This document shows positions 6,194 through 15,234 of a DNA stretch of 32,000 nt, one piece after another. The stretch is taken from positions 3,870,001-3,902,000 of the forward strand of contig NZ_CP021983.2 in NCBI RefSeq assembly GCF_002075285.3, in the 5' to 3' direction. This DNA comes from Halomicronema hongdechloris C2206. Lineage in GTDB: Bacteria; Cyanobacteriota; Cyanobacteriia; Phormidesmidales; Phormidesmidaceae. The position numbers and the translations under genes are program-made. How positions within the stretch are numbered: the first letter of the stretch is position 1; each line of letters opens with the position of its first letter. The notes beneath the pieces were generated by a model. The model did no database searches. It was not told the DNA's origin and saw only the letters and a program-made list of their open reading frames with translations.

Positions 6194-7336
6194 CTAGGCA
6201 GGGGTAAGCTGCTCCATTTTTTCCTGGATGGACTGCAACAGAGCATCGTAAGGCTTCACGAATTTGTCGATGCCCTCTTCCAGTAGCTCATCCATTACCT
6301 GGTTCAGGTTGATGTCGATGGCCGGGTCGGCCAGGCTCTCAATCTGCTGGCGGGCCAGGTCCCAGCCAGTGAGCACCTGATCCGGCTGAATGTTGCCGTG
6401 ATCGGCGACGGCGTCGATGGTTTCTAGGGGCATAGTGTTGATGGTGTGTTGCCCCACCAACTCTTCCACGTACATGACGTCGCTGTAGTCAGGGTTCTTG
6501 GTGCTGGTGCTGGCCCACAGTAATCGCTGCACCTGCGCGCCCCGATTTGCAAGGGCTTGCCAGCGCTCGCTGCCAAAGAGCTCTTGGAAACGCTGATAGG
6601 CTAGCTTGGCATTGGCGATGGCGATGCGCCCTCGTAGGGCTTCTAGCCGCTGCTGCCGCTCTCCGTCGGCCTGTTCCAGTTTTGCTGCCAGGCGATCATC
6701 TACCTTGGTGTCGATGCGACTGAGGAAGAAGCTGGCCACCGAGGCGATGCGATCGATGGGACGACCCAATTCAGCTCGCTTTTCTAGGCCACGAATGTAG
6801 GCCCACGCTGCTTGAGTATACATCTCCACCGAGAACAGCAGAGTAACGTTGACGTTGATGCCCTCGGTAATGGCTTGTTCGATGGCACCTAGCCCCTCTA
6901 GGGTGCCAGGGATCTTGATCATGACGTTGTCGCGGTCTACCGTTGCGAAAAAGCGGCGAGCTTCAGCCATGGTGCCAGCAATATCGCGGGCCAGGTGGGG
7001 AGACACCTCAATGCTGACATAGCCGTCTGCGCCATCAGTAGCATTGTAGACCGGGCGCAGCTCGTCACAAGCTCGGCGCACGTCTTCAAAGGCTAGTGAC
7101 TGGTAAATCTGCTCAGCAGTCCACTCGTTCTGGATGCCTTGCTGAATATCGGGCTGGTAGCGATCATCGCTGCGAATAGACTTTTCGAAGATAGATGGGT
7201 TGGATGTGATCCCGGCCAGCCCTTGATTGTCAATGCGCTGCTTCAGCTCACCGGTTTCAATGATGCTGCGGCTGAGGTAGTCCATCCACAGACTTTGGCC
7301 GTACTCTTTCAGGGTTAGTAACGGGTTGGTACTCAT
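6194..7336 (-). CDS. tal: Transaldolase
   Basis: The 380-aa ORF begins 'NPLLTLKEYGQSLWMDYLSRSIIETGELKQRI...GITSNPSIFEKSI...MIKIPGT', which is the characteristic long-form cyanobacterial transaldolase sequence. Confidence 0.93.
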   Translation of the reverse strand: MSTNPLLTLKEYGQSLWMDYLSRSIIETGELKQRIDNQGLAGITSNPSIFEKSIRSDDRYQPDIQQGIQNEWTAEQIYQSLAFEDVRRACDELRPVYNATDGADGYVSIEVSPHLARDIAGTMAEARRFFATVDRDNVMIKIPGTLEGLGAIEQAITEGINVNVTLLFSVEMYTQAAWAYIRGLEKRAELGRPIDRIASVASFFLSRIDTKVDDRLAAKLEQADGERQQRLEALRGRIAIANAKLAYQRFQELFGSERWQALANRGAQVQRLLWASTSTKNPDYSDVMYVEELVGQHTINTMPLETIDAVADHGNIQPDQVLTGWDLARQQIESLADPAIDINLNQVMDELLEEGIDKFVKPYDALLQSIQEKMEQLTPA

Positions 7337-7765
7337 AGGTCGCGGGGTGGTGGTGACTTGACTACACAGACAGTGGTTAGGGGATCCTGAGTTGAACTGA
7401 CCATATCGCTAGTCGACTCGGACTCCCATAGAGTGGAGAGTTGATGCCCTATCAGGAGGCTAGGAACTGATTCGGCCAACGGGTAGTGATGCCCTAGACC
7501 AGCTTGCGAGCATACCTTGTTCCTCACTTCTACAGTAGAAAATTTCACGGCTGGTGGCGTCTCCCTGTAGAGAGAATCTGTCAAAATGCTGCTACACCAG
7601 GATTATTACGAGTTCTTCAAACAGCCTAGAGCCCTTGAGACAATTGGATACCCTAGACGGCATACCCCTCACTAGAGGATGGGATCAGGCAAGTCGGACC
7701 TGACATGGTCAGAGTCATGGGTCGGCGTCTGCCAATCCGGGTGCTTTCATAGATTTCTCTATTGC

Positions 7766-7803
7766 TTATATCCATACAGTTATATCCATACAGTTATATC
7801 CAT
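7766..7803 (+). repeat. 14-nt tandem repeat 'TTATATCCATACAG', 2.7 copies, running into the ATG at 7802
   Basis: Direct reading gives units at 7766-7779 and 7780-7793, and a partial third unit at 7794-7803. In that third unit the ATA of the repeat is ATG, the likely start codon of the next gene. Confidence 0.85.
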
Positions 7804-8824
7804 GCCCCAAGACCGCAGTAAGCATTGGTTTGTTTCCGCGTCAGAGCTTGATACTCCTGGAGGTGCCCAACTTCGACGCACCGATTCAGCGATCCAAGAG
7901 ACGGATCAGCTGATTCCAGAAGGAGGATCCTTCACCCTCTCCTTAGAAAGCTTCTACATCTACGAAGGCCATGACGATGACGGCAGTGGTAATGATCTAC
8001 TCATTCGCAGTCGAGTGCGCTACGGTGATGAACCGCGCACCGAAGTGATCAATTTCTTCGGTGCCGACATCCCTGCGGGCACCGTCAAAGATAACTTGGA
8101 ATACGAGCACATCTTTGCGCGCCAAGACTACTCAGAAGAGGCCCGCATCTGGCTAGAAATCGAAGTGATGGAGATTGATAAGGGTCTGGCTCGAGATGAC
8201 TCTATCCTGGGTGGCTTAGGGCAGGTCTACCGTGACTTTGGCGGTCTCTTTGCCACCCTAATTCCCTTTTCAGGTGTAGCTGCCTCTCTCATTGGTCGCC
8301 TGGAAAAATTGAATCGTGTTCGGGACCAAGACAAACAGATCTTTCTCAGCACCCTGGATTTGTACTCTAAGGTAGCAAGTTCTGGGGAGGCGCCGCTGCG
8401 TTGTGGTGCCTATGTATTTTTCAAAGATGAGGTGGAAGCGGTGCAGTATAAACTACGGGGGTTACAGCTAGAACGAGCTGCCCCTAACCAGCAGAATGTG
8501 CCGATCCGAGATGACTACCTGGTGATTAAAGTTGTCCCGACCATTGTCAAATCGGTCAGTAGCAGCGACAACCTACTGCAAAATCAGCAGGTGGCGACTA
8601 TCCTCAGCCATCTGGATGAGGGGGAAAAGGCAGAGGCCAGTCGACGCAAACAGCATCTCAGTTATCTGCAAGACATTGTGCAGGGATCGCGCCAACTGAA
8701 GGATCTGGACTATTTCTACACGCTCAAGCGCCAAAAAGATTTAGGGAAAACGCTGAGCCAGCCTCAGGAGGAGCGGTTCTTTGAGATTGCCGATAAATTG
8801 AGTCGCTACATTCCCAACCTCTAG
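7802..8824 (+). CDS. Hypothetical protein (about 340 aa), family not recognised
   Basis: The ORF is open from 7679, but the first ATG is at 7802 ('MPQDRSKHW...'). Coding-like composition runs throughout, and the C-terminus is helical and charged. It lies 94 nt upstream of the lysozyme/peptidase gene on the same strand. Confidence 0.55.
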   Translation: MPQDRSKHWFVSASELDTPGGAQLRRTDSAIQETDQLIPEGGSFTLSLESFYIYEGHDDDGSGNDLLIRSRVRYGDEPRTEVINFFGADIPAGTVKDNLEYEHIFARQDYSEEARIWLEIEVMEIDKGLARDDSILGGLGQVYRDFGGLFATLIPFSGVAASLIGRLEKLNRVRDQDKQIFLSTLDLYSKVASSGEAPLRCGAYVFFKDEVEAVQYKLRGLQLERAAPNQQNVPIRDDYLVIKVVPTIVKSVSSSDNLLQNQQVATILSHLDEGEKAEASRRKQHLSYLQDIVQGSRQLKDLDYFYTLKRQKDLGKTLSQPQEERFFEIADKLSRYIPNL

Positions 8825-8918
8825 CCCAACCTTGAGGAGGAGATCGATGCTGGGCTGTTTCCGAAATAGGTAGCCATTATATTGATGCCTTTCTATAACC
8901 CCCTAGCCCCTTATTACC

Positions 8919-11582
8919 ATGAACAGGACGCTGCAAATTTACAAGACCTTTCTGCTGGGCCTATTCATCGGTTTGGCCTATGCCCTACTGGTGAGTGGCC
9001 CGCCTGATGCTGTCTTGCCAGAGTGGTTTCAGTATCGGGTGTTTATTCTCACTTTCTCTGGTGTGGTTGGCGGTATTCTCTACACCGTCATGCTGGATGG
9101 CAAGATCGAGATGCCCTATATGAGTGAGGATGGTCGAGATTTGCAAATCGGCATCCTCGGGGATATTCTGCTGGGCATTTCCGGTGCCTATCTGTTAGAT
9201 TTTGTCACTGACTACCCCAGTGACACGAGCCTCAGCAACTTCAATATTCTGTTGGCCGCCAAGGGTATTGTGGGCGGTTACGGAGCTAAGGCCTTGCTAA
9301 ATATGGCTTTAGAGAAGGTACTGAAACGCATCCATCGCATGGAGACGGTAACCCAAGAGGCAGTCCAGAAGAAGCAGGAGCTGTCTCATCAGGTTGAGGA
9401 ACTTAGCGATCAGAATCAATCTCTGACGGAGAGTGGTGAGCTCATCGATCAGGTGAATCTGCAGGTGAATGAAGGGCTGCCATCGCGCCAGCTGGCTGAC
9501 CTAAAGCAACGAATTCGCTCTGCTTCGCCGGACGTGCGGCAGCGGATCTTCGGGTTGGTGAAAGAGATGCGCAGTATGAGCTGGCGTTCCCAGGGACTGC
9601 GCAACCGCACGACTCGTACCATTCCTATTTTTGAGGCGCTGGTGGCCAGCGATGAGAGGTATCATCCCTATCACGCCCAACTCGCCTTTGCCTGCAAAGA
9701 CGCGGTCCCACCGGAATTGGACCGGGCCATTGTGGAGCTGGATCGGGCAATTGAGTTAAGGGGAGAGCAGGAGCAGGCTGCCACCTGGAAGTATGAATTG
9801 AATCGGGCCATTGCACGTATCGAAAAGGAATACAGCGAAACCGGCGGCGTCACCAGTGATCCCTCGCTGCGGGAAGCGATCCTCAAGGATCTGCTGGCGG
9901 TCACCCGCACCCATGGCCTGGCCCAGGTAATCAATCAGGCCGAGGCAGAACAGATTCCGACCCCGATCATGGAGTGGATCGTGCGCAATCAAGATTGGTT
10001 GCGATCGCACCCCGACACCCGCAACCTGATCAACGACGTGTTGCGCACGGTGCCCGGTCGTAATGCCATTGCGGCTGCTCCCAGCGGTCAGGTGAGTCCT
10101 CAGCGTGATGCCGGTAACGGTCCTAGCGTCCAGTCCGGCCCCCCTACCTCCGGCTCCACCATGAGTCCGCCGCCATCTCCGCCCTCTGATGGTGGAGTCG
10201 CCGTACAACCCAAGACGGCCAATCGCTGGGCCTTGGCCCTGGCCCAAGCCCCTACTAACGGGGCCTCAGACCGGACGGCTAGTCAAGACGGCCTCTCGGG
10301 CGGGCTCACCGCCTCCCATAAGATGGCCGAGCGCGATCTTCCTGAGGTGAAGCGCTTGGCCGAGCGCTTCCGTCAGGTGGGGGACCGCGCTGGCATTCCG
10401 CCGGCCTTGATTGCCGCCATCGCCAGCCGCGAATCTCGCTGCGGTAGAGTCTTAGACGCCAATGGCCGCGGCGACCACGGCAATGCCTTTGGCATCATGC
10501 AGGTGGATCAGCGCTATCATACCCAGGCCGGCAGTGACGGCGATCCAGCCAGCCTCGAGCACCTGAGCCAGGGGGTGGGCATTTTGGCCGATGGTCTGCG
10601 GCAGGTGGAGGCTAACCATTCTGATTGGGAAGATCCCTACATCCTCAGAGGTGCGATCGCAGCCTACAACTTCGGCGTCTCCAATGTGCGCACCAAGGCC
10701 GGCATCGATGAGGGCACTACCGGTGACGACTATAGTTCCGATGTCGTGGCCCGGGCCCAGTTCTTCATTCCCCATTTGCTGCTCACGCCGGTAACGGTCT
10801 CCGACCAGAATAACGGCCAGGCCGTCTGGTCGGTGGAGCGCATTGCCGAGACCCTGCAGACGGTAGAAGACGCCATTCCCATCGATGAGTGGGATGAGGC
10901 TATGGCCACCGCCATAAAACAGGGACTAGCCCGGCTCTACCTGTGGACTCCCGGTGCCGATCTGAAGCAGGCCTGGGCCGTCTTCAAACAGAGCATCTAC
11001 CAGAGTGATCCCGACTACATCGGCCCCGGCAGCGTGCGGTTACTGCTGGATGCCCTCGGGGTCGACCATCCGGCCGCCGAGGAATCCGTCCCCGCCGAAG
11101 ACACCCCCACCCAGACCAATCCGGACGCGGGGTCCCAGACCGGCACCTCCAAGCACCTGCCCCATTACAACCAGCTGGTCTATGAGAACGAGTACATCAT
11201 TGCCGGCGTGCCCCTGACCTGGGGTGAGTGTACCAAGGGCATGAGCCGCTGGCCTACCCAGAAGTTGGAAGTGGACAATGGCCGCCGTCTAGCCAAGGTG
11301 TTCGGCGAAGTCCGGGCCGCCTTCGGCGAGCCCCTGATTATCACCTCCGGATTCCGTCCCGAGCCCATCAATCGTCGGGTCGGCGGGGTCAGCAACAGCC
11401 AACATGTTCCCTTTAAGGCCCTGGATATTCGCCCTCTGCGCAGCGCCAATAATGAAGGCTTCGCCCGGTTGCTGCAGATCCTGCGCAATAATCCCAAGGT
11501 GGTCGGCATTGGTCGCGGCCAACGCAAGGGCTTCTTGCACATGGATATCCGGGATGGCCGCCGGGTAGAGTGGGATTATTAA
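8919..11582 (+). CDS. Membrane-anchored multidomain peptidoglycan hydrolase: 4-TM N-terminus, coiled coil, helical region, Pro-rich linker, goose-type lysozyme-like domain, M15 (Peptidase_M15_3-like) zinc peptidase domain
   Basis: Four hydrophobic helices occupy aa 8-130 and a heptad-like region aa 140-200. 'IASRESRCGRVLDANGRGDHGNAFGIMQVDQRYH' (about 10311-10772) matches the G-type lysozyme catalytic region. The C-terminal 'SGFRPEPINRRVGGVSNSQHVPFKALDIRP...GFLHMDIRDG' (about 11181-11573) carries the H-x6-D...H zinc triad of M15 peptidases. Confidence 0.8.
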   Translation: MNRTLQIYKTFLLGLFIGLAYALLVSGPPDAVLPEWFQYRVFILTFSGVVGGILYTVMLDGKIEMPYMSEDGRDLQIGILGDILLGISGAYLLDFVTDYPSDTSLSNFNILLAAKGIVGGYGAKALLNMALEKVLKRIHRMETVTQEAVQKKQELSHQVEELSDQNQSLTESGELIDQVNLQVNEGLPSRQLADLKQRIRSASPDVRQRIFGLVKEMRSMSWRSQGLRNRTTRTIPIFEALVASDERYHPYHAQLAFACKDAVPPELDRAIVELDRAIELRGEQEQAATWKYELNRAIARIEKEYSETGGVTSDPSLREAILKDLLAVTRTHGLAQVINQAEAEQIPTPIMEWIVRNQDWLRSHPDTRNLINDVLRTVPGRNAIAAAPSGQVSPQRDAGNGPSVQSGPPTSGSTMSPPPSPPSDGGVAVQPKTANRWALALAQAPTNGASDRTASQDGLSGGLTASHKMAERDLPEVKRLAERFRQVGDRAGIPPALIAAIASRESRCGRVLDANGRGDHGNAFGIMQVDQRYHTQAGSDGDPASLEHLSQGVGILADGLRQVEANHSDWEDPYILRGAIAAYNFGVSNVRTKAGIDEGTTGDDYSSDVVARAQFFIPHLLLTPVTVSDQNNGQAVWSVERIAETLQTVEDAIPIDEWDEAMATAIKQGLARLYLWTPGADLKQAWAVFKQSIYQSDPDYIGPGSVRLLLDALGVDHPAAEESVPAEDTPTQTNPDAGSQTGTSKHLPHYNQLVYENEYIIAGVPLTWGECTKGMSRWPTQKLEVDNGRRLAKVFGEVRAAFGEPLIITSGFRPEPINRRVGGVSNSQHVPFKALDIRPLRSANNEGFARLLQILRNNPKVVGIGRGQRKGFLHMDIRDGRRVEWDY

Positions 11583-11656
11583 GCCAAGACCATGCAGAGA
11601 CCGGGGCATCCGCAGTACCATAGGAGACTGCATCGCTGTTGTTTGCCGTAGACTCC

Positions 11657-13063
11657 ATGACTGCCGACGCCCCTCGCCGCTATCACATCACCACCTTCGG
11701 CTGCCAGATGAACAAGGCCGACTCTGAGCGCATGGCCGGGATTCTCGATGCCATGGGGCTGCAATGGTGTGAGGATCCCCTGCAAGCCGATGTGGTTCTC
11801 TACAACACTTGTACCATCCGCGATAATGCCGAACAGAAGGTCTATTCCTACCTGGGACGGCAGGCCAAGCGCAAACACGAGCGCCCCGATCTGACCCTGG
11901 TGGTGGCCGGGTGTGTGGCTCAGCAAGAGGGCCAAACCCTATTGCGGCGCGTGCCGGAGCTGGATCTGATCATGGGTCCCCAGCATGCCAACCGCCTGCA
12001 GGATCTGCTGGAGCAGGTATTTGCGGGGGCTCAGGTGGTGGCCACCGAACCGGTGGACATCTTAGAAGACATTACCCAGCCGCGGCGGGATAGCACCGTC
12101 ACCGCCTGGGTGAATGTGATCTACGGCTGCAACGAGCGCTGCACCTATTGTGTGGTGCCCAATGTCAGAGGGGTGGAGCAGTCTCGCACCCCCGAGGCCA
12201 TCCGAGCCGAGATGGAGGTGTTGGGGCGTCAGGGCTATAAGGAGGTGACGCTGCTGGGGCAAAACATCGATGCCTATGGTCGCGACTTGCCCGGCACTAC
12301 CGCGGCGGGACGTCACCAACATACCCTGACCGACTTGCTCTACTACGTCCATGATGTACCCGGCATCGAGCGCATCCGCTTTGCCACCAGCCATCCCCGC
12401 TATTTCACCGAGCGCCTGATTCGGGCCTGCGCTGAGTTACCCAAGGTCTGCGAGCATTTTCACATTCCCTTTCAGTCGGGGGACAATGCGGTGCTCAAGG
12501 CCATGGCCCGGGGCTATACCCATGAAAAATATCGTCGCATCATCGCCAAGATTCGCGACTATATGCCGCAGGCGGCCATCAGCGCCGATGCCATCGTCGG
12601 GTTCCCGGGGGAAACGGAGGAACAGTTTCAAAATACCCTACAGCTGGTGGATGACATCGGCTTTGACCAGCTAAATACGGCGGCCTATTCCCCTCGCCCC
12701 GGCACCCCGGCCGCCCTGTGGGATAACCAGCTGGATGAGGAGACTAAGTCAGACCGGCTGCAACGGCTGAATCGCCTGGTGGCGACAAAAGCAGCGATGC
12801 GATCGCATCGTCACCTAGGTCGCCTCGAAGCGGTGCTAGTCGAAGATCAAAACCCCAAAGATCCCACCCAAGTCATGGGCCGCACCCGCAGCAACCGTCT
12901 CACCTTCTTTAAGGGCGACCTGCAGCAACTCAAGGGTCAGCTGGTAACGGTCAAGATCACAGAAGCCCGCGCCTTCAGCCTCACTGGCGAGCCCCTAACA
13001 GAAACCGCAGCCGCCGCCAGCCGCCAGGCCCCAGACCAGGCTGCCGCCGTAGCGATGCCCTAA
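11657..13063 (+). CDS. miaB: tRNA-2-methylthio-N6-dimethylallyladenosine synthase (radical SAM methylthiotransferase)
   Basis: '[24 protein letters not shown]', the radical-SAM motif '[13 protein letters not shown]' and a C-terminal TRAM-like end identify it. The ORF opens at a TTG at 11639, and the ATG at 11657 fits the family N-terminus better. Confidence 0.9.
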
Positions 13064-14313: not shown

Positions 14314-15234
14314 CTACCAATAACTGTTCGTTGCCATCAGTAGCCAGACGCCTCGCTGCGTCTGATGACCCCCTAGTTCAGCATTTATTGGCAAAGAGGG
14401 CGGGTAGCGCTCGGGACACACCCGCTGGGGTTGATAAATCTCAGCCTGCCAGCCATAGGCGGCCAATAGCGGCCGGGGATCGTCACAGCCCCAGCGCCAA
14501 TGGCGAATCACCCGCCCCCGATCCTGGTGTCGAGCTCGGCCAGCTGCGGCCAGCGATCCCAGGGTGACTTCATCCAGGCCCAGCTGGCTCTCAGGGGCAC
14601 TCAGGTCTGATATGGCCTGTAATACCGCCTGCAGAGAGGACTCTGGCAGGTACATGGCTACCCCTTCCAGCAGCCATAGGGTAGGTCGCTCCCGCTGGTA
14701 CCCTGCTCGTATCAGCGAGGTGATCCAGTGGCTGGCGGATTCCTCCAGATCGGCATCAATCAGGTGGTGGTCACAGGCGGGCGGCACCGGCCGCAGCATG
14801 GCAGTCTTGTAATTCAGCACCAGGGCATGATCTACCTCATAGAGCTGAGTACCAGCGGGCCAGGTGAGTCGCTAGGCCCTGGTATCGAGACCCGCCCCCA
14901 GAATCACCACCTGGGGAGTACGGCCCTGATGGCAGCTAGCCTGCAGCCAGGCATCAAAGAAATAGGTGCGGATAGCCACATAGCGAGTTCGCTTGCGGAT
15001 AACCTCTGACAGGGGCCGTTGTTGTCGCTGGGCAGTGGCTTGCCATTGAGTCAGCAGGGCGTCGACCTCATGGCCGGCCAGACAAGTGGCATAGGGATCC
15101 TGAAATAGAGCAGGCTGGTGGGTTTGCTCAAAGATGCGCTTAGCCGCCACAATGCGAGCGGTGTAGGGAACGGGAGTGTGCGGCAGTAGGGACACAGCAG
15201 AGCAACGAAGTGTCAAATCAATAGAGGGGGACAC
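14314..15234 (-). pseudogene. SAM-dependent (Leu carboxyl/O-methyltransferase-like) methyltransferase interrupted by one in-frame TAG
   Basis: Track ORFs 14872..15234 and 14314..14820 share a frame. Read through, the junction gives '[34 protein letters not shown]'. The TAG at 14872-14874 sits where this family has Tyr ('[11 protein letters not shown]'). Confidence 0.75.

Follow-up and report, generated by a model that had tools for sequence, protein, structure and literature searches.

We analysed a 32,000-nucleotide stretch of the genome of the cyanobacterium Halomicronema hongdechloris C2206 (contig NZ_CP021983.2, positions 3,870,001 to 3,902,000; hereafter the window, in whose coordinates positions are given). 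It holds two same-strand open reading frames (ORFs), where a first-pass annotation made from the sequence had placed them. They are flanked by a transaldolase gene (6194-7336, minus strand) on one side and by a MiaB-like radical-SAM gene (11639-13063) on the other. The second ORF encodes an 887-amino-acid protein, here called the lysin, in which an N-terminal module with predicted transmembrane (TM) helices, a stalk helix and a TPR domain is fused to a goose-type lysozyme (GEWL) and an M15 peptidase. The first encodes a 340-amino-acid protein of a family that we call P0002. Comparison with relatives indicated that the enzymes are exchangeable cassettes on a widespread module. Tentatively, the lysin can be read as a latent suicide or conflict effector. 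Features are listed in Table 1.

Table 1. Features of the two-gene locus, in window coordinates. AF2, AlphaFold2; K+R, lysine plus arginine; pLDDT, local confidence score of the AF2 model; TRF, Tandem Repeats Finder.
Feature	Position	Strand	Basis
14-nt tandem repeat TTATATCCATACAG, 2.7 copies	7766..7803	+	TRF score 76, 100% matches
340-aa partner protein: C2-like beta-sandwich (predicted), hydrophobic Pro-kinked hairpin, C-terminal helical hairpin, no signal peptide	7802..8824	+	Homologues, AF2, fold searches
Membrane-anchored bifunctional peptidoglycan hydrolase (predicted), 887 aa, whole gene including stop codon	8919..11582	+	ORF and domain searches
Four Gly-rich TM helices (predicted), residues 1-139; TM2-4 form a 3-TM core related to DUF4257/YLATT	8919..9335	+	AF2, Gly motifs, K+R counts
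Single long stalk helix, residues 145-185	9351..9473	+	AF2 secondary structure
TPR domain, about four repeats, residues 189-377	9483..10049	+	AF2, VIA fold comparison, conservation
Pro/Ser/Gly/Ala-rich low-complexity linker, residues 378-440, at the cassette-exchange junction	10050..10238	+	Composition; pLDDT low after 387
Goose-type (GH23) lysozyme domain, residues 441-620; E505 (10431-10433), D519, D530	10239..10778	+	phmmer against PDB
Inter-enzyme spacer, residues 621-760 (140 aa), fold unassigned	10779..11198	+	No PDB or Pfam match
Peptidase_M15_3 (M15A-type) zinc peptidase domain, residues 761-887; H829, D836, H874	11199..11579	+	Pfam, 1LBU alignment

The enzyme half of the lysin carries the two catalytic domains that had been proposed at first pass. 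Residues 441-619 align (phmmer against the PDB) with positions 10-183 of solved fish and goose GEWL chains of 185-187 aa (4g9s, 3mgw, 153l and others); over the full domain length, matches to solved fish and bird GEWLs had E-values of 8e-44 to 1e-34 at about 50% identity. In the HMMER alignment, the glutamate of the ASRESR motif, already singled out as catalytic, pairs with the catalytic glutamate of the goose enzyme (E73), and D519 and D530 pair with its conserved D86 and D97. Profile searches gave a divided answer. Peptidase_M15_3 was over its Pfam cut-off (residues 761-876, profile positions 5-108 of 108, E = 3.2e-19, 69.5 bits against 23.2), whereas Pfam SLT fell just under its own (19.8 bits against 21.3), and the lysozyme is backed by the PDB matches instead, a stronger test than the generic SLT model. 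The zinc ligands named earlier follow the His-x6-Asp...His pattern and align with those of the zinc D-Ala-D-Ala carboxypeptidase 1LBU. The closest PHROG families of the M15 domain are endolysins (PHROG 894, E = 1.5e-18). Judged by the alignments, both catalytic residue sets are complete and both domains intact. With only three cysteines in the whole protein, the lysin appears independent of disulfides.

Both enzyme parts are ordinary, known building blocks. Many bacterial "lysozyme g" relatives of the GEWL domain, at 50-63% identity, occur in cyanobacteria, myxobacteria and Syntrophobacterales, alone (about 190 aa) or fused to VanY, M23, amidase_2, CHAP, SH3 or PG-binding domains. Interleaved with these bacterial enzymes are the g-type lysozymes of animals (fish, tunicates, Trichoplax), at 47-52% identity to the GEWL domain. 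The spacer between the two enzymes gave no PDB sequence match at E ≤ 10 and no Pfam match.

For the N-terminal module (residues 1-377), the first-pass annotation had described a polytopic membrane segment followed by a coiled coil of about 60 aa. An AF2 model built on 27 family members (pLDDT 80) has TM helices at residues 2-25, 35-60, 78-96 and 105-139, in agreement with the first part of this description. The supposed coil is helical in the model, as one long helix of about 40 aa. Missing from the earlier list of parts was the TPR domain that follows. Three of the TM helices exceed the Kyte-Doolittle threshold, and the Gly-rich TM4 is weaker; the TM region carries Gly motifs that are invariant in the family.

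The TPR domain is modelled with pLDDT mostly at 82-98, and about 75 in its last few residues. When residues 201-381 were compared exhaustively with structures by VIA, the top 50 matches were all TPR proteins (Z 10.4-14.1), the best of them the TPR of the Craspase TPR-CHAT protease (150 residues at 2.9 Å). Foldseek agreed weakly with this assignment, a PDB profile search with the N-module gave only marginal GAT/TPR matches, and the Pfam TPR models did not match the lysin protein. This part is the best conserved region of the family, with R218, R233, D261, R281, Y292, E293, R296, D324 and W353 invariant or nearly so, and most of these nine residues are also kept in the stand-alone relatives described below. 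The conserved polar residues point to a putative binding surface. A weak PADLOC match of the lysin to a ZorA tail (E = 0.0036) lies over the stalk helix and is probably due to coiled-coil bias.

The distribution of charges predicts on which side of the membrane the enzymes lie. Averaged over 27 sequences, K+R counts were 2.2 for the N-terminal tail (6 residues), 1.0, 2.0 and 0.6 for loops 1, 2 and 3, and 3.3 for the 15 residues that follow TM4. Under the positive-inside rule, this pattern predicts four spans with both termini inside, which would make the stalk, the TPR domain and both hydrolases cytoplasmic. Lineage-specific insertions fall in loops 1 and 3. The earlier description of two activities tethered to the membrane, if taken to mean facing the wall, is at odds with this prediction. 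The recurrent partner proteins of the lysin (see below) all lack signal peptides, which is compatible with interaction on the cytoplasmic side. The low cysteine count of the lysin and the stand-alone relatives that begin at TM2 (see below) are likewise compatible with the predicted orientation.

A profile of the TM-stalk-TPR module, searched against 1.84 billion representative proteins, matched 1285 clusters (at 50% identity), 901 of them at E ≤ 1e-10. The top 40 or so are long fused proteins, and most of the others are stand-alone proteins of 320-430 aa that span the TM core, the stalk and the TPR. The first-pass annotation had not recognised that the TM and coil part belongs to a large conserved module that elsewhere mostly stands alone. 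Stand-alone members occur in bacteria and archaea, including cyanobacterial and Methanosarcinales entries, and because of the latter the module is not tied to peptidoglycan-containing cells. The Methanosarcinales proteins P0177, P0269 and P0270 are annotated DUF4257. Many stand-alone relatives begin at TM2 and would have three spans, with the same predicted orientation of the C-terminus inside.

Pfam DUF4257 (PF14074) matches 28 of 59 stand-alone representatives. In two proteins, P0224 and P0250, YLATT (PF20303; E 1e-29 to 1e-33) matches residues 8-127. The family profile places TM2-4 at exactly this position, and it aligns in one stretch both with these two and with the 28 DUF4257-positive proteins. 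Independently, a language-model search put the N-module beside YLATT-bearing clusters (0.95). The lysin itself has no DUF4257 match at E ≤ 0.01, and its whole genome has no YLATT match at E ≤ 10. Since it is linked through intermediates yet falls under both Pfam models, its sequence places it as a divergent branch of a DUF4257/YLATT-TPR superfamily and not as a listed member. The full name of YLATT in Pfam is "YEATS-Like-Associating Three TM"; the family was reportedly named for its association with YEATS-like proteins in the 2020 survey of prokaryotic immune systems by Burroughs and Aravind in J Bacteriol. For pYEATS (PF20305), the H. hongdechloris genome gave no significant match, with one at chance level elsewhere in the genome (E = 1.03, 11.9 bits), and 351 cyanobacterial genomes gave none, though the control genomes were silent too.

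A 400-aa hypothetical protein on plasmid pRL9b4 of Rhizobium leguminosarum (L038:5416-6618) shares the stalk-TPR part at 33-38% identity. A DUF1778/GNAT (TacAT-like) toxin-antitoxin pair is encoded about 1 kb away.

Conservation across about 100 cyanobacterial proteins is limited to the first 36-47% of the lysin protein; the C-termini carry different Pfam domains. Among 41 long family representatives, Pfam matches were to M15_3 (12), SLT/GEWL (11), GH24 phage-type lysozyme (8), MACPF (7), GH19 (6), C39-like peptidase (5), Jacalin (5), PG_binding_1 (5), a C70-like peptidase (2), M23 (1) and SH3 (1). A PF11860 muramidase cassette is also present in the family. The N-module carries four glycosidase families, four peptidase families and MACPF-jacalin, and by these assignments all the cassettes are of types that act on wall or membrane, that is, they are predicted to breach the envelope.

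Exchange can be followed among strains. In relatives, homology to the N-module stops at residues 371-400. In Microcystis strains, the N-modules are 72-99% identical and the C-terminal parts are mosaic, with the low-complexity linker as the exchange junction. One pair with N-modules 99% identical has C-parts of 70% identity with a different glycosidase; in another, the N-modules are 93% identical and just 39% of the C-part can be aligned. By analogy, such strain-level effector swapping is typical of conflict systems. That the enzymes are swappable had escaped the first-pass annotation; it emerges from the Pfam census and the Microcystis mosaics.

Two observations on single members or cassettes may be added. 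All seven MACPF-bearing representatives (P0105, P0130 and others), five of which also carry jacalin, have the same N-module; it would be unusual for a bacterial membrane protein to carry a pore-forming domain towards the cytoplasm, as is predicted here. In Crocosphaera chwakensis CCY0110 (L033:2416-7152), the N-module (374 aa) and the C-part (632 aa) of the lysin homologue are encoded by separate ORFs with two unrelated ORFs (137 and 421 aa) between them, and the gene looks as if disrupted by an inserted element.

The ORF upstream of the lysin gene is open from 7679, for 381 aa, but the start of all 24 homologues corresponds to the methionine of 7802, which sets the length at the 340 aa given at first pass. 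The protein had no match in Pfam, PHROG, PADLOC, NCBIfam or PDB sequences. Its AF2 model (pLDDT 76.6, pTM 0.77) shows a beta-sandwich, an inserted helical segment (133-173) and a C-terminal helical hairpin. The top Foldseek matches are all C2 domains (E = 2e-4, probability 1.0), as are the top VIA matches (Z 6-7.1, below 8, over about 116-130 residues), and we call the protein C2-like with moderate confidence on the strength of this model. The most conserved motif of the family, FGxxFPxLxPF, lies within a hydrophobic hairpin (about residues 146-165) in the insert. In 21 of 25 members the hairpin is as hydrophobic as a TM segment (hydropathy 1.4-2.0); the other four score 1.1-1.2. The N-termini of the family are hydrophilic and thus give no export signal, so that the protein may be cytoplasmic and either membrane-peripheral or monotopic. 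Its identification as a pYEATS protein was considered and rejected: there was no Pfam pYEATS match at E ≤ 5, and among the matches listed the fold searches gave C2, not YEATS.

Both families are rare. Among 401 sampled cyanobacterial genomes, the N-module was found in four solidly and in one weakly, and the P0002 family in three; neither was found in two genomes of the same family as H. hongdechloris. A single-sequence scan of genome contigs with the upstream protein gave no match. Plasmid searches gave three distant mid-domain or TM matches to the module and none to P0002. The N-module had no match in 50,697 phage records or in IMG/VR, which bears out the earlier impression of an endolysin logic without a phage.

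We recovered 26 genome loci, from Leptolyngbya-like taxa, Elainellaceae, Phormidium, Microcystis, Crocosphaera, Prochloraceae, Xenococcaceae and a Halomicronema metagenome-assembled genome, and derived recurring settings by clustering their ORFs. In the first setting, a P0002-family gene adjoins the lysin gene. Seven loci showed this, in three orientations. Here the P0002 gene lies upstream and on the same strand; four loci have it downstream and convergent, two of them with a tandem pair, and in the remaining two it is downstream and shares the strand of the lysin gene. In the second, an SPFH/Band-7 membrane protein gene lies directly upstream of the lysin gene (eight loci of Microcystis, Crocosphaera, Prochloraceae and Xenococcaceae); in a single Microcystis locus a P0002-like gene is present as well as the SPFH gene. 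In the third, tandem duplicated lysin genes are flanked by genes for caspase-domain proteins, CHAT-AAA_35, AAA_35-WD40, KAP NTPases or TPR proteins. Tandem paralogous lysin copies occur in six loci. The pair of genes noted at first pass is thus conserved as neighbours in part of the family; its arrangement varies, the two are unlinked in genome G158, and the P0002 gene is missing from other loci. In 80 metagenome loci of stand-alone modules, found by a pattern scan with a narrow family alignment, there was no P0002-family gene and no neighbour conserved at the BLAST level. P0002 was therefore rejected as a general partner of the module and is taken as a facultative one restricted to cyanobacteria.

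In G158 (L008:8614-13930), the P0002 homologue lies far from the lysin gene and directly upstream of genes for a DUF3670-SNF2 helicase and a SWIM protein. The same SNF2/SWIM pair is found a few genes from the lysin in loci L014 and L015 of related genomes, so that an ancestral neighbourhood may have been rearranged. A small conserved ORF (136-162 aa, without TM segment or signal peptide) directly follows the tandem lysin pair at L025:15829-16317 and L026:7065-7475 and is a candidate for a further partner or regulator.

The DNA before the 340-aa gene holds a tandem repeat, as had been remarked at first pass, and it is a perfect one. Its last unit supplies the ATG of the gene, and it occupies the place of the ribosome-binding site and 5' untranslated region. 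From its sequence, it could be a slippage-prone switch or an operator. The repeat was not seen in the comparison loci, as far as these were looked at. The gap of 94 bp between the two genes contains a weak stem-loop only, and a consensus scan gave no convincing promoter. The earlier remark that the upstream gene and the TM/coil part look less GC-rich than the enzymatic part was right: GC is about 0.50 over 7200-9400 and 0.60-0.66 over 9600-11600. The step is largely one of GC2 (second codon positions), i.e. of amino-acid composition. GC3 (third positions) climbs less steeply: it is 0.56 in the upstream gene, 0.61 in the TM part, 0.68 in the TPR and 0.72-0.81 in the enzymes, against 0.63-0.72 in neighbouring genes. 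A recent foreign origin of the enzyme half was considered as an explanation of the step and is weakened, since the step is mostly GC2 and the pairing of GEWL and M15 is shared with relatives at 38-45% identity.

Among ten ORFs scanned around the lysin gene there was no phage structural, holin or integrase gene, in line with the first-pass annotation. The MiaB-like gene is conserved in two same-family genomes, but its upstream side is rearranged there, so that no clean insertion site can be defined. Elsewhere in the window, a leucine carboxyl methyltransferase-like gene (14314-15234, minus strand) is split into in-frame ORFs at 14314-14820 and 14872-15234. The Pfam LCM match is limited to the C-terminal part, in ORF 14314-14820, and the sequence is probably a pseudogene.

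The reading that we favour, tentatively and at somewhat less than an even chance, is that the lysin is a single-chain suicide or conflict effector resembling a holin plus an endolysin. We favour a latent lysis device because competent enzymes appear to lie on the wrong side of the membrane, on a Gly-rich multi-TM tether with a conserved TPR surface, because tethers of this type have been catalogued among the membrane effectors of predicted immune systems, and because the warheads are exchanged, the distribution is patchy and some loci lie among caspase/STAND genes. Controlled self-lysis or abortive infection had been named among the possible roles at first pass; we favour this role, and it stays a proposal.

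Beside what was observed (the domains and their catalytic residues, the structure and sporadic occurrence of the family, the swapping of cassettes and the gene neighbourhoods), we infer a topology, a trigger, roles for the partners and a biological purpose, as follows. The lysin would sit in the cytoplasmic membrane with both termini inside, and its hydrolases would be made active but away from their substrate, as phage endolysins are. The cytoplasmic TPR domain would hold the system off or sense a trigger, alone or with facultative membrane-peripheral partners. These could be the C2-like hairpin protein (upstream here), the SPFH protein (in Microcystis and Crocosphaera) and perhaps caspase/STAND proteins in other loci. 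On triggering, the Gly-rich TM module would oligomerise or otherwise breach the membrane in a holin- or SLATT-like manner; alternatively, the hydrophobic hairpin of the partner could be the breaching agent. The tethered enzymes would then reach the sacculus and cut glycan and peptide bonds, and the cell would lyse. The outcome would be altruistic suicide, by abortive infection or programmed lysis. A wider form of the proposal, in which the TM-stalk-TPR module is a self-contained, signal-gated membrane-breaching device of bacteria and archaea that in cyanobacteria, bloom-forming Microcystis among them, became a one-polypeptide holin and endolysin, a suicide effector with strain-shuffled warheads under the control of the membrane-peripheral partners and in some loci of caspases or STAND NTPases, is more doubtful. 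It would define a new class of abortive-infection or programmed-lysis system acting via the cell wall.

Several results weigh against a suicide or conflict effector. The predicted topology comes from two sources, the charge counts and the AF2 model. TM4 is Gly-rich and weakly hydrophobic, lies below the hydropathy threshold and has a conserved Lys/Arg; a form with three TM helices and the C-terminus outside would place the enzymes in the periplasm. PADLOC defence models gave no match save the weak ZorA coiled-coil one. Most family members are stand-alone proteins in variable contexts, and the upstream partner gene is facultative. Housekeeping genes (transaldolase, MiaB-like, arginine decarboxylase, FtsH) directly flank many of the loci, the present one among them. 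The caspase/NTPase neighbours cluster in few related loci, and because such genes are abundant in cyanobacteria, their adjacency may be partly due to chance or shared ancestry.

A second reading supposes that TM4 is not a spanning helix. The stalk, TPR and enzymes would then be periplasmic and the lysin could be a tethered autolysin, an accessory hydrolase for wall remodelling or envelope guarding held at a fixed distance from the membrane. It would be a one-chain analogue of FtsX plus PcsB or EnvC, or of LpoP-like TPR regulators. The hydropathy of TM4 and its conserved basic residue would fit such a protein, and a stalk helix with a long linker would be suited to reaching the sacculus. Wall-binding PG_binding_1 and SH3 domains are found among the cassettes, the C-terminal TPR of LpoP is among the fold matches (Z 12.1), and several loci are flanked by housekeeping genes only. 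The charges speak for an even number of spans, however, as the N-tail and the post-TM4 segment are rich in K/R and loops 1 and 3 are poor, and the recurrent partners have no export signal. A family present in about 1% of the sampled cyanobacterial genomes, and not in same-family genomes, would be odd for wall growth; housekeeping remodelling also explains poorly the MACPF-jacalin cassettes and the strain-level mosaicism. The septal or wall remodelling in a filamentous cyanobacterium suggested at first pass fits poorly as well, both for this rarity and because the family is common in the unicellular Microcystis and Crocosphaera. We consider a periplasmic autolysin unlikely.

Still less likely is a polymorphic antibacterial toxin, in which the N-module would serve trafficking or anchoring and the C-terminal cassettes would be delivered to competitors, or set free in vesicles or when part of the population lyses. 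A neighbouring gene, such as that of the 340-aa upstream protein or one of the small downstream ORFs, would then supply a chaperone or immunity. A constant N-terminus with variable C-terminal lytic domains is the pattern of such toxins. Lysin copies are found in tandem in six loci and P0002-family genes are tandemly duplicated in two. MACPF-jacalin and peptidoglycan hydrolases are typical extracellular weapons, and an effector with N-terminal TM helices and an upstream chaperone recalls the prePAAR/Eag effectors. Pfam searches of the protein and about 40 neighbours, on the other hand, recognised neither a PAAR, Rhs, LXG or TPS domain nor any other that is linked to secretion, and no signal peptide was detected; an export route of another kind may exist. 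Nor was there a candidate for periplasm-targeted immunity, as the downstream gene is MiaB-like and the partners and small ORFs (cluster c23) have no signal peptides. Most family members have no toxin domain, and four TM helices favour a resident membrane protein. A degenerate or domesticated prophage lysis cassette, i.e. an ordinary endolysin with an acquired membrane anchor, is largely refuted and very improbable: the PHROG endolysin match of the M15 domain (see above) and the GH24 "phage lysozyme" cassettes of relatives would agree with it, but phage genomes and IMG/VR contigs contain no match to the N-module, the surroundings lack phage structural, integrase and holin genes, and the loci in 26 genomes show cellular contexts.

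The searchable literature held no description of the module fused to lytic enzymes, and a full-text search for YLATT/DUF4257 gave nothing relevant. What is new is the fusion of known enzymes to a DUF4257/YLATT-like TM-stalk-TPR module, the exchange of cassettes, and the facultative C2-like and SPFH partners. If the lysin is a suicide effector, wall hydrolysis from within would join membrane pores, nucleases and NAD depletion as an executioner of bacterial suicide immunity, and this executioner would be a single, easily transplantable protein. A large orphan family, the DUF4257/YLATT-TPR membrane proteins with their approximately 1300 clusters, would gain a function. Programmed lysis in bloom-forming Microcystis and in Crocosphaera, where lysis governs toxin release and the export of carbon and nitrogen, would become accessible to genetics. 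Even on modest readings, there is a natural exchange of cassettes among six or more families of lytic enzymes behind one anchor, useful for enzyme mining and for understanding lysin latency.

Phage holin-endolysin pairs and the SAR (signal-anchor) endolysins share with the predicted lysin the principle that the cytoplasmic membrane separates active muralytic enzymes from the wall as long as no membrane event lets them through. The catalytic domain types are those of phage endolysins (M15, by PHROG; GH24 in relatives), and two predicted bond specificities are combined in one protein. In contrast to the phage systems, the lysin is not phage-borne and has no separate holin gene, its N-module is widespread without any enzyme, and its anchor is a 140-aa four-helix Gly-rich module with a stalk and TPR instead of the single weak helix of SAR endolysins. 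With the YLATT/DUF4257 proteins, the likeness is in the stand-alone relatives, which have the same stalk-TPR and carry YLATT or DUF4257 at the position of TM2-4. The lysin differs in falling under both Pfam models, in the lack of a detected pYEATS gene and in a partner predicted to be C2-like.

Polymorphic toxin systems resemble the family in the boundary at a low-complexity linker, the diverse C-terminal cassettes and the strain mosaics. They differ in that no secretion marker or adjacent exported immunity protein was detected here, and in that the N-terminal part of the lysin is polytopic and mostly occurs free of toxins. The NTP-dependent conflict systems of multicellular bacteria include EAD1-linked lysozyme and papain-like peptidoglycan peptidases, and peptidoglycan-attacking effectors have been predicted for suicide-type immunity (Kaur et al. 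2020, PMC7159879), a published precedent that speaks for the favoured reading. Some lysin family members have genes for caspases, CHAT proteins or STAND NTPases beside them, and this link is one of neighbourhood in a minority of loci. Pfam recognised no EAD adaptor, however, and the locus in the window has no directly adjacent NTPase or caspase gene.

The goose-type lysozymes of fish and birds are about 50% identical to the lysin domain over its whole length and have the same acidic triad; here the enzyme is an internal domain of a predicted membrane protein. A looser analogy, from general knowledge, is with the bacterial gasdermins and their caspase-like proteases, to which the lysin has no relation in sequence or fold. 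In both cases a latent envelope-breaching effector, presumptive in the lysin, is sporadically distributed, with caspase genes beside some loci, and by this analogy the disordered linker of the lysin could be a cleavage site.

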